A stretch of 64,000 nucleotides of DNA. It comes from Escherichia coli (GTDB lineage: Bacteria; Pseudomonadota; Gammaproteobacteria; Enterobacterales; Enterobacteriaceae). This document shows, piece by piece, positions 27,004 through 27,809 of the stretch (positions are counted from its first letter, which is position 1; each line of letters opens with the position of its first letter). The DNA lies in assembly GCF_003334765.1 (NCBI RefSeq), contig NZ_QOWT01000009.1; one strand, given 5' to 3'. The notes below the pieces were generated by a model. It saw only the letters and a program-made list of their open reading frames with translations. It was not told where the DNA came from and did no database searches. Made by a program: the position numbers and the translations under genes.

Positions 27004-27034
27004 AAGGCCGCTTTCTGAGCGGCCTTTTCCTTTC
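27004..27034. terminator. Bidirectional hairpin terminator between uvrA and yjbR
   Basis: aaggccgc-tttctga-gcggcctt followed by ttcctttc. Confidence 0.6.
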
Positions 27035-27389
27035 AGAGTTGCACCAGCAATTTACGTTTTTCTTCCGGCAGTAAATTCACCGCCTGCTGATAAGACGCAT
27101 CCACCAGATAATAGATTTGCGAATCTGGCAGCGAACCGTCGAGATACACGGTGCTCCAGTGCGCTTTATTCAGATGGCGGCTTGGACGCACATCGCTGTG
27201 CTGCTGACGTAGCAGCTCCGCCAGCTCCGGGCTGGTTTTCAGCGAAACAGCTGGGCGATTTTCTACTTCTTTCACCATCGCAAACAGTACATCTTCCACT
27301 TTGATCTGCGTCGCTTTCCAGTCATTATGCACGCTCTGTTCTGCGCCTGGTTTTGCCATGCAATATTGTAGCAACTCCGAAATGGTCAT
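27033..27389 (-). CDS. yjbR: MmcQ/YjbR-family protein of unknown function
   Basis: 118 aa ORF; position downstream of yjbQ as in K-12. Confidence 0.85.
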   Translation of the reverse strand: MTISELLQYCMAKPGAEQSVHNDWKATQIKVEDVLFAMVKEVENRPAVSLKTSPELAELLRQQHSDVRPSRHLNKAHWSTVYLDGSLPDSQIYYLVDASYQQAVNLLPEEKRKLLVQL

Positions 27390-27392
27390 TTT

Positions 27393-27809
27393 TTACTCCC
27401 CTTGTAGTGTCGCGATGATGCGACGCGATCCGCCGTGGATGCGATGTTCCCCCAGCCAAATGCCTTGCCAGGTGCCGGTCTGAATACGCCCTTTATGCAC
27501 CGGCAATACAAGCGATGTTCCCAGCATTGAGGATTTGATATGAGAAGGCATATCGTCTGCTCCCTCATAGTCATGCTCATAATTTCCGTTGTCGGGAACG
27601 GTGCGGAGGAAAAAACGCTCCATGTCGTGGCGTACGGTGGGATCGCAGTTCTCATTAAGTGTCAGAGAGGCGGAGGTATGTTGCAGCAACAGATGCAGTA
27701 AGCCGATGTTAACGCGCGGCATATCAGCCAGCTGATTCAGAATTTCATCCGTTACCAGATGAAACCCACGAGATTTGGCGCTAAGCGTGAGCGTCTTTTG
27801 ATACCACAT
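27393..27809 (-). CDS. yjbQ: UPF0047/YjbQ-family protein
   Basis: 138 aa ORF; 3 bp from yjbR. Confidence 0.85.

Follow-up and report, generated by a model that had tools for sequence, protein, structure and literature searches.

Two small genes lying beside uvrA in the stretch of DNA analysed here (the window, 64 kb) are the already known and annotated yjbQ-yjbR operon of E. coli K-12. Taken as a whole, the evidence is very likely best explained by this known yjbQR operon, with an adjacency of the two genes that is inherited within one branch and without any regulatory link to the SOS response. The region from 26900 to 28000 (1.1 kb) shows 100% identity to E. coli K-12 MG1655 and is matched in every complete E. 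coli genome searched (5,426/5,426), with at least 80% of its length covered in 5,420 of them. The yjbQ (b4056) and yjbR (b4057) genes of K-12, described as the 'yjbQR' transcription unit, are identical to the present pair in sequence and annotation, i.e., this is the same locus with zero differences, and the K-12 gene order, ssb-uvrA-yjbR-yjbQ-aphA-tyrB-alr, is also the order found here (Table 1). RefSeq names the genes as 'secondary thiamine-phosphate synthase enzyme YjbQ' and 'MmcQ/YjbR family DNA-binding protein', next to uvrA and aphA. The original prediction had described two small ORFs separated by 3 bp and placed tail-to-tail with uvrA, and the ORF coordinates and the junction sequence bear this layout out. 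YjbQ and YjbR are widely conserved E. coli proteins, and a genuine functional connection would help to understand either one. What the evidence points to is a local, dispensable feature of gene order in a coincidental SOS context.

Table 1. Features of the yjbQR locus and its surroundings (positions are those of the window).
Feature	Position	Strand	Description	Basis
ssb		-	adjoins uvrA, first in the gene order around the locus	
uvrA	24176-26998	+	tail-to-tail with yjbR	
Hairpin	27004-27036	+	AAGGCCGCT-TTCTG-AGCGGCCTT and U-rich tail	terminator scan and fold
yjbR	27033-27389	-	118 aa; MmcQ/YjbR family, PF04237, 'double-wing'/CyaY-like fold	ORF, profile, PDB match
yjbQ-yjbR junction	27390-27401	-	GGGGAG, TAA, AAA; yjbR ATG at 27387-27389	read from sequence
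yjbQ	27393-27809	-	138 aa; UPF0047/YjbQ family	ORF, profile matches, RefSeq
yjbQ Shine-Dalgarno	27816-27821	-	AAGGAG, 6 nt 5' of the ATG	read from sequence
Putative yjbQR promoter	27840-27868	-	-35-like TTTATC (27863-27868), -10-like CAAACT (27840-27845), 17-nt spacer	inferred
aphA intrinsic terminator	27878-27921	-	two-tier hairpin and U-run	terminator scan and fold
aphA, tyrB, alr, dnaB		-	beyond yjbQ, in that order, all on this strand	

Both yjbQ and yjbR are real genes, chance ORFs being ruled out by their family matches. YjbQ matches PF01894 (E = 2.6e-36) and, over residues 4-138, TIGR00149 with 180.3 bits, above the curated cutoff of 67.75, which makes it a full-length member of the UPF0047/YjbQ family. 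It is related to nine structural-genomics structures (1XBF, 1VMH, 1VE0, 1VMF, 2CU5, 2P6C, 1VMJ, 2P6H and 1VPH). Across 16 sequences, from bacteria and one archaeon, 13 YjbQ positions are invariant (T20, G36, H44, T45, E53, D62, H79, H90, G112, W114, Q115, E121 and R129), and E. coli YjbQ carries both these invariant His, Glu and Asp residues and the core of the family, composed of the HT[ST] motif, the histidines and the GTWQ motif. Shared by archaeal and E. coli sequences alike, the three invariant histidines and three invariant acidic residues would fit a metal-dependent catalytic site and suggest that YjbQ is a metal-dependent enzyme. The YjbQ homologues in deposited structures are described as trimers. 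The weak thiamine-phosphate synthase-like activity that the original prediction ascribed to YjbQ agrees with the literature, where the source for such activity in the family is Morett 2008 (cited in PMC3010111 and PMC11551756). There, overexpression of yjbQ compensates for the deletion of thiE and for that of pdxB, effects which the authors regard as promiscuous and not as the native role (PMC3010111, PMC11551756). According to the literature, the thiamine-phosphate synthase and pdxB-bypass effects of YjbQ are promiscuous and dependent on overexpression.

YjbR matches PF04237 with E = 2.9e-21 and is identical over residues 1-118 to PDB 2FKI ('Protein yjbR'), which places it in the MmcQ/YjbR family (PF04237, formerly DUF419; structures 2FKI, 2A1V and 2KFP/3H9X) and gives it the 'double-wing' fold. 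The NKxHW motif and K51/W78 are conserved. Since its score against the NCBIfam equivalog NF007603 (43.8 bits) falls far under the cutoff of 183, YjbR is not the NF007603 paralogue, which we take to represent YbdF. Fusions to EVE, TerB and GNAT have been described for other members of the YjbR family; E. coli YjbR is without any. The fold is described as CyaY-like or 'double-wing' and resembles the C-terminal 'double-wing' domain of T4 MotA, a structural analogue, and DNA binding has been predicted from it; the DNA-binding-like fold put forward for YjbR is therefore in line with both the literature and 2FKI. Nucleic-acid binding by YjbR stays at the level of a prediction, in a family that is mostly acidic (net charge -2.1, median pI 6.06, 9% of members above pI 8) and for which a DNA-bound structure is still needed (PMC3424535). 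No PADLOC family matches YjbQ or YjbR at E ≤ 0.01, and a defence role is accordingly not suggested for either protein.

The two genes make up a genuine, tightly coupled operon. The junction reads GGG GAG TAA AAA ATG, so that yjbQ and yjbR are in the same frame with a gap of 3 nt, and the yjbR Shine-Dalgarno, GGGGAG, lies within the final two codons of yjbQ. Both genes are on one strand, the gap is too short to hold a promoter or a terminator, yjbR has a ribosome-binding site of its own, and co-expression has been published; the terminator scan, run on both strands, called no terminator-like site at the junction. The tight coupling originally proposed is thereby upheld. Because the yjbR ribosome-binding site sits in the final yjbQ codons and is followed by TAA-AAA-ATG, the translation of yjbR is probably coupled to that of yjbQ, and a single bicistronic yjbQR mRNA appears to be made. 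The junction is kept in Klebsiella, and its 3' remnant is retained in Citrobacter despite the loss of yjbQ. In a passage of a MazF-regulon study, the yjbR mRNA is reported to be cut 16 nt 5' of the start codon, and an ACA triplet occupies positions -16 to -14 relative to the yjbR start codon (27401-27404 region), inside the end of yjbQ; a MazF cut at this ACA would detach yjbR from the yjbQ part of the mRNA. In the shared frame (27387-27395), a ribosome reading through the yjbQ stop would make a YjbQ-YjbR fusion of ~258 aa. No natural YjbQ-YjbR fusion was found among the homologues searched: an apparent one (P0003) was rejected on reading its sequence, which is a double-frameshift artefact. 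Another composite protein, joining TetR_N to YjbQ (P0273), looks like an assembly chimera.

Upstream of yjbQ, the strong aphA terminator would insulate yjbQR from aphA. Between this terminator and the yjbQ start sits a promoter-like block that is common to E. coli, Klebsiella, Citrobacter and Mixta, TTTA(T/C)C...TTGCTGCA(A/C)ACT, or, written as hexamers, TTTA(T/C)C, 17 nt and CA(A/C)ACT. The strict sigma-70 scan left the block at 27840-27868 uncalled, its hexamers being poor matches, and because of this the promoter is a putative one. In this reading the block would be the operon's own promoter, with weak hexamers, and yjbQR is probably transcribed from it. Published ChIP-exo/RNA-seq data list 'yjbQR' as one transcription unit to which GadE binds weakly (signal-to-noise ratio 1.01; Seo et al. 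2015, PMC4918353). In the same study, the wild-type FPKM values are 369 for yjbQ and 305 for yjbR, those of a second column, taken here as the regulator knockout, are 258 and 194, respectively, and deletion of yjbQ or yjbR leaves glutamate-dependent acid resistance without defect (PMC4918353). Co-expression, the check to which the pairing could be put, is thus found in a published unit with similar levels and parallel small decreases. After conversion of its coordinates, the published GadE site falls inside aphA, at ~28064-28094, which would imply a transcription start upstream of the aphA terminator; it is given little weight because of the signal-to-noise ratio of 1.01. An Rfam scan of 26800-28100 returned a single match, to Trp_leader, at chance level (E = 0.6, 19 bits against a gathering score of 41). 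Further along, the aphA/tyrB interval holds an AT-rich island (28600-29700, GC 0.30-0.35 against ~0.5 in the flanks), where K-12 has the annotated small gene yjbS.

How far the pairing extends beyond E. coli was established by several routes. Word-indexed homologue searches gave almost only Enterobacteriaceae and were of little use for distant context, which was obtained by an exhaustive search of representatives, a genome scan and tblastn on a plasmid collection (mislabelled chromosomes and chromids). The pair is present in Klebsiella with the 3-nt gap, in Mixta (Erwiniaceae) with a gap of 32 nt, and in Rouxiella (Yersiniaceae) with a gap of 87 nt and a YjbR that is 53% identical. In the representative search, the identity of YjbR drops from >80% to ~53% and then to ~40% for family members. 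The genome scan with the YjbR-family alignment gave 80 loci at 30-43% identity, spanning Bacteroidota, Bacillota, Chloroflexota, Actinomycetota and Verrucomicrobiota, among others. The YjbR-family gene was re-detected in 80/80 of these diverse PF04237 loci, and a YjbQ ORF was found within 4 kb in 0/80. Likewise, none of 12 YjbQ loci outside Enterobacteriaceae, Erwiniaceae and Yersiniaceae, a small sample drawn from chromids and mislabelled chromosomes in the plasmid database, has an adjacent yjbR. These loci come from Proteus (Enterobacterales), Halomonas, Sulfurimonas, Legionella, Burkholderia, a Comamonadaceae isolate, Methylobacterium, Sinorhizobium, Paracoccus, Cytobacillus, Ilyobacter and the haloarchaeon Halogeometricum; at the Paracoccus locus, a weak PF04237 match lies 3.6 kb off on the opposite strand. 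For Proteus, the search for a yjbR homologue (query P0139) returned no Proteus record among the 25 of 66 matches listed. In Enterobacillus tribolii, a YjbR-like gene follows purMN and yjbQ is lacking there.

Recurrence of the pair across distant lineages of both families, which characterises conserved gene pairs, was not found, and among the sampled loci the pair occurs only in Enterobacteriaceae, Erwiniaceae and a single genus of Yersiniaceae. The yjbQ-yjbR adjacency would thus be inherited within one Enterobacterales branch and would not represent a conserved two-component system. Elsewhere, UPF0047/YjbQ genes have other partners, such as sutA in Pseudomonas and bolA in Legionella, while the yjbR partner belongs to this one branch; NUDIX hydrolase, MFS transporter and sensor kinase genes are also found as neighbours. 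In Pseudomonas aeruginosa (PA14_69780), yjbQ is followed by sutA on a bicistronic transcript, and in Legionella adelaidensis (L093:3660-4441) bolA overlaps the yjbQ start by 4 nt, i.e., outside the pair-bearing branch, yjbQ is coupled to other small regulatory proteins. Several flanking arrangements were also recorded. A zinc-type alcohol dehydrogenase gene adjoins yjbQR on opposite sides in Rouxiella and Mixta: in Rouxiella sp. WC2420 (L002:1732-3913) it lies upstream with a TetR gene, both on one strand and divergent from yjbQ, and in Mixta (L088:4803-5867) it lies downstream of yjbQR and is convergent with it. A contig from Logan accession SRR13625005 (L087:1-6750) carries dnaB, alr, a transporter gene, a YjbR-like gene (42% identical), a bactofilin gene and uvrA, in that order and with yjbQ missing, so that a YjbR-family gene stands alone in the syntenic alr-uvrA interval.

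Citrobacter freundii provides a natural deletion within the branch that carries the pair. The order of its locus is tyrB-aphA-yjbR-uvrA, with yjbQ missing between aphA and yjbR. In NZ_CP151862.1 (L103:1354-1520), the yjbQ coding sequence has been cleanly lost, while the aphA terminator and the promoter-like block remain in place, and the final ~12 nt of yjbQ (GGGGAATAAAGATG) still supply the Shine-Dalgarno and start codon of an intact yjbR. No YjbQ match was found in a 425-kb Citrobacter record. The layout without yjbQ recurs in 7 independent C. freundii records (L103 plus L104-L109), and the exact C. freundii YjbR sequence occurs in ~9,000 indexed blocks of the assembly collection. Because the C. 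freundii locus has lost yjbQ and yet keeps an intact yjbR, yjbR is maintained there without its neighbour. The yjbQ-yjbR pairing at the locus is dispensable in Citrobacter, and this naturally yjbQ-less C. freundii constitutes a ready comparison for work on function.

It has been suggested, in the original prediction, that the pairing is functional. Stated in full, YjbQ and YjbR would form a true enterobacterial module in which the 3-nt coupling fixes their stoichiometry; YjbR might, for instance, bind a ligand or a nucleic acid and pass it on to the YjbQ enzyme, or else control that enzyme. The tight, in-frame and translationally coupled junction conserved in E. coli and Klebsiella and the similar RNA levels of the two genes are what such a module would produce, and the survival of the adjacency in Mixta and Rouxiella, despite different flanking genes, is compatible with some selection for co-expression. 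However, the gap reaches 32 and 87 nt in the other families, there is no association beyond one Enterobacterales branch (0/80 YjbR-family and 0/12 YjbQ loci), Proteus has yjbQ without a nearby yjbR, on the Logan contig a yjbR-like gene occupies the alr-uvrA interval and yjbQ is missing, true fusion proteins were not encountered, the single apparent one being the double-frameshift artefact, and C. freundii has dropped yjbQ from the locus and retained yjbR under its promoter. Of the suggested pairing, the tight coupling and the co-expression stand, whereas the functional part is weakened by the absence of adjacency elsewhere and by the loss in C. freundii, and a functional module appears unlikely. 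A specific form of it, in which a YjbQ trimer would act on a nucleic-acid-linked or nucleotide-derived substrate presented or sensed by YjbR, with the Citrobacter deletion as a secondary loss, is about as unlikely. An operon inherited within the branch is preferred over both, and studies of YjbQ or YjbR function should not presume that the partner gene, or uvrA, is informative.

On the other side of the pair, the stop codons of uvrA and yjbR are 34 nt apart, and the spacer is filled by a single hairpin (27004-27026). It folds with -19.9 kcal/mol (z = -3.97) on the + strand and -17.0 kcal/mol (z = -3.69) on the - strand. On the uvrA strand, a 10-bp stem is followed by the tail UUUUCCUUUC and was called as a terminator by the scan; on the yjbR strand, this stem leads into UUAACGAUU, which has no U-tract, and the scan made no call. 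A bidirectional intrinsic terminator would carry a U-tract on both strands, and here it is confined to the + (uvrA) strand. The hairpin is not found in other genera. In Klebsiella, the uvrA/yjbR spacer is 0 nt and the E. coli hairpin is missing; the Citrobacter spacer measures 115 nt and is free of terminator-like sites. Given the U-tract on one strand and the absence in Klebsiella and Citrobacter, the E. coli hairpin is, as far as sequence and fold can tell, mainly a uvrA terminator that is unconserved as an element of the pair; it would serve chiefly to terminate uvrA and present to yjbR transcripts a stem lacking the U-tract. The terminator hairpin had been thought to be shared by uvrA and yjbR: one hairpin does occupy the spacer, but its U-tract serves the uvrA side only and the element is missing in the other genera. 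In Klebsiella pneumoniae (L102:4770-4785), the yjbR TAA abuts the uvrA stop (TTA on that strand), which means that the 3' ends of both convergent transcripts must overlap coding sequence.

Such an arrangement raises the question of whether the convergent uvrA and yjbQR could be under mutual regulation through transcriptional interference or antisense read-through, with the hairpin setting the level of the latter. Stops that lie 34 nt apart, a yjbR-strand hairpin without a U-tract and, in Klebsiella, abutting stops that force the transcripts to overlap at their 3' ends would all favour it. Against this, the spacer is free to vary in length (0, 34 and 115 nt), which speaks against a tuned element, and the terminator on the uvrA side looks competent, so that mutual regulation of this kind is very improbable and the hairpin is better read as the uvrA terminator.

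The remaining claim concerned an SOS neighbourhood, i.e., that the pair would be co-regulated with uvrA and ssb or would act on damaged DNA in nucleotide-excision repair. uvrA does adjoin the pair in E. coli and Klebsiella, and the yjbR locus in Citrobacter, and the fold of YjbR is predicted to bind DNA. Yet no LexA box with up to 1 mismatch was found upstream of yjbQ (27810-28100); the nearest one, at uvrA/ssb, is 3.7 kb from yjbQ and beyond a convergent gene, and since yjbQR is transcribed towards uvrA, no promoter can be common to both. The adjacency to uvrA is itself broken elsewhere: in Mixta an alcohol-dehydrogenase gene is inserted between yjbR and uvrA, and in Rouxiella uvrA lies outside the yjbQR locus altogether. 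The YjbR family is mildly acidic, with its median pI of 6.06. Within the library searched, LexA is named together with yjbQ or yjbR, or both genes are named, in just three papers, and no SOS link is made in the passages concerned. The likeness of yjbQR to the LexA-regulated operons uvrA and ssb is one of chromosomal proximity alone: unlike them, yjbQR has no LexA box, and it is convergent with uvrA and shares no promoter with it. The SOS neighbourhood is thus unsupported, membership in it being the least probable of all the readings considered, close to negligible; the link of yjbQR to uvrA and SOS is positional only and a coincidence of context, and the place beside uvrA would reflect local gene order without regulatory consequence.

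The search for LexA boxes covered the whole 64-kb window with the pattern CTGT-N8-ACAG, allowing up to one mismatch, and gave 18 sites against 17.3 expected, i.e., chance level. Recognisable LexA-box-like sites in the window are restricted to the one at 24075 (ssb/uvrA) and a tandem at 40941 and 40962. The tandem (40941-40977) consists of two sites 21 nt apart, CTGGGTGTATATACAG and CTGTGAGTATATACAG, and one can reasonably presume that it corresponds to the autoregulated lexA promoter.
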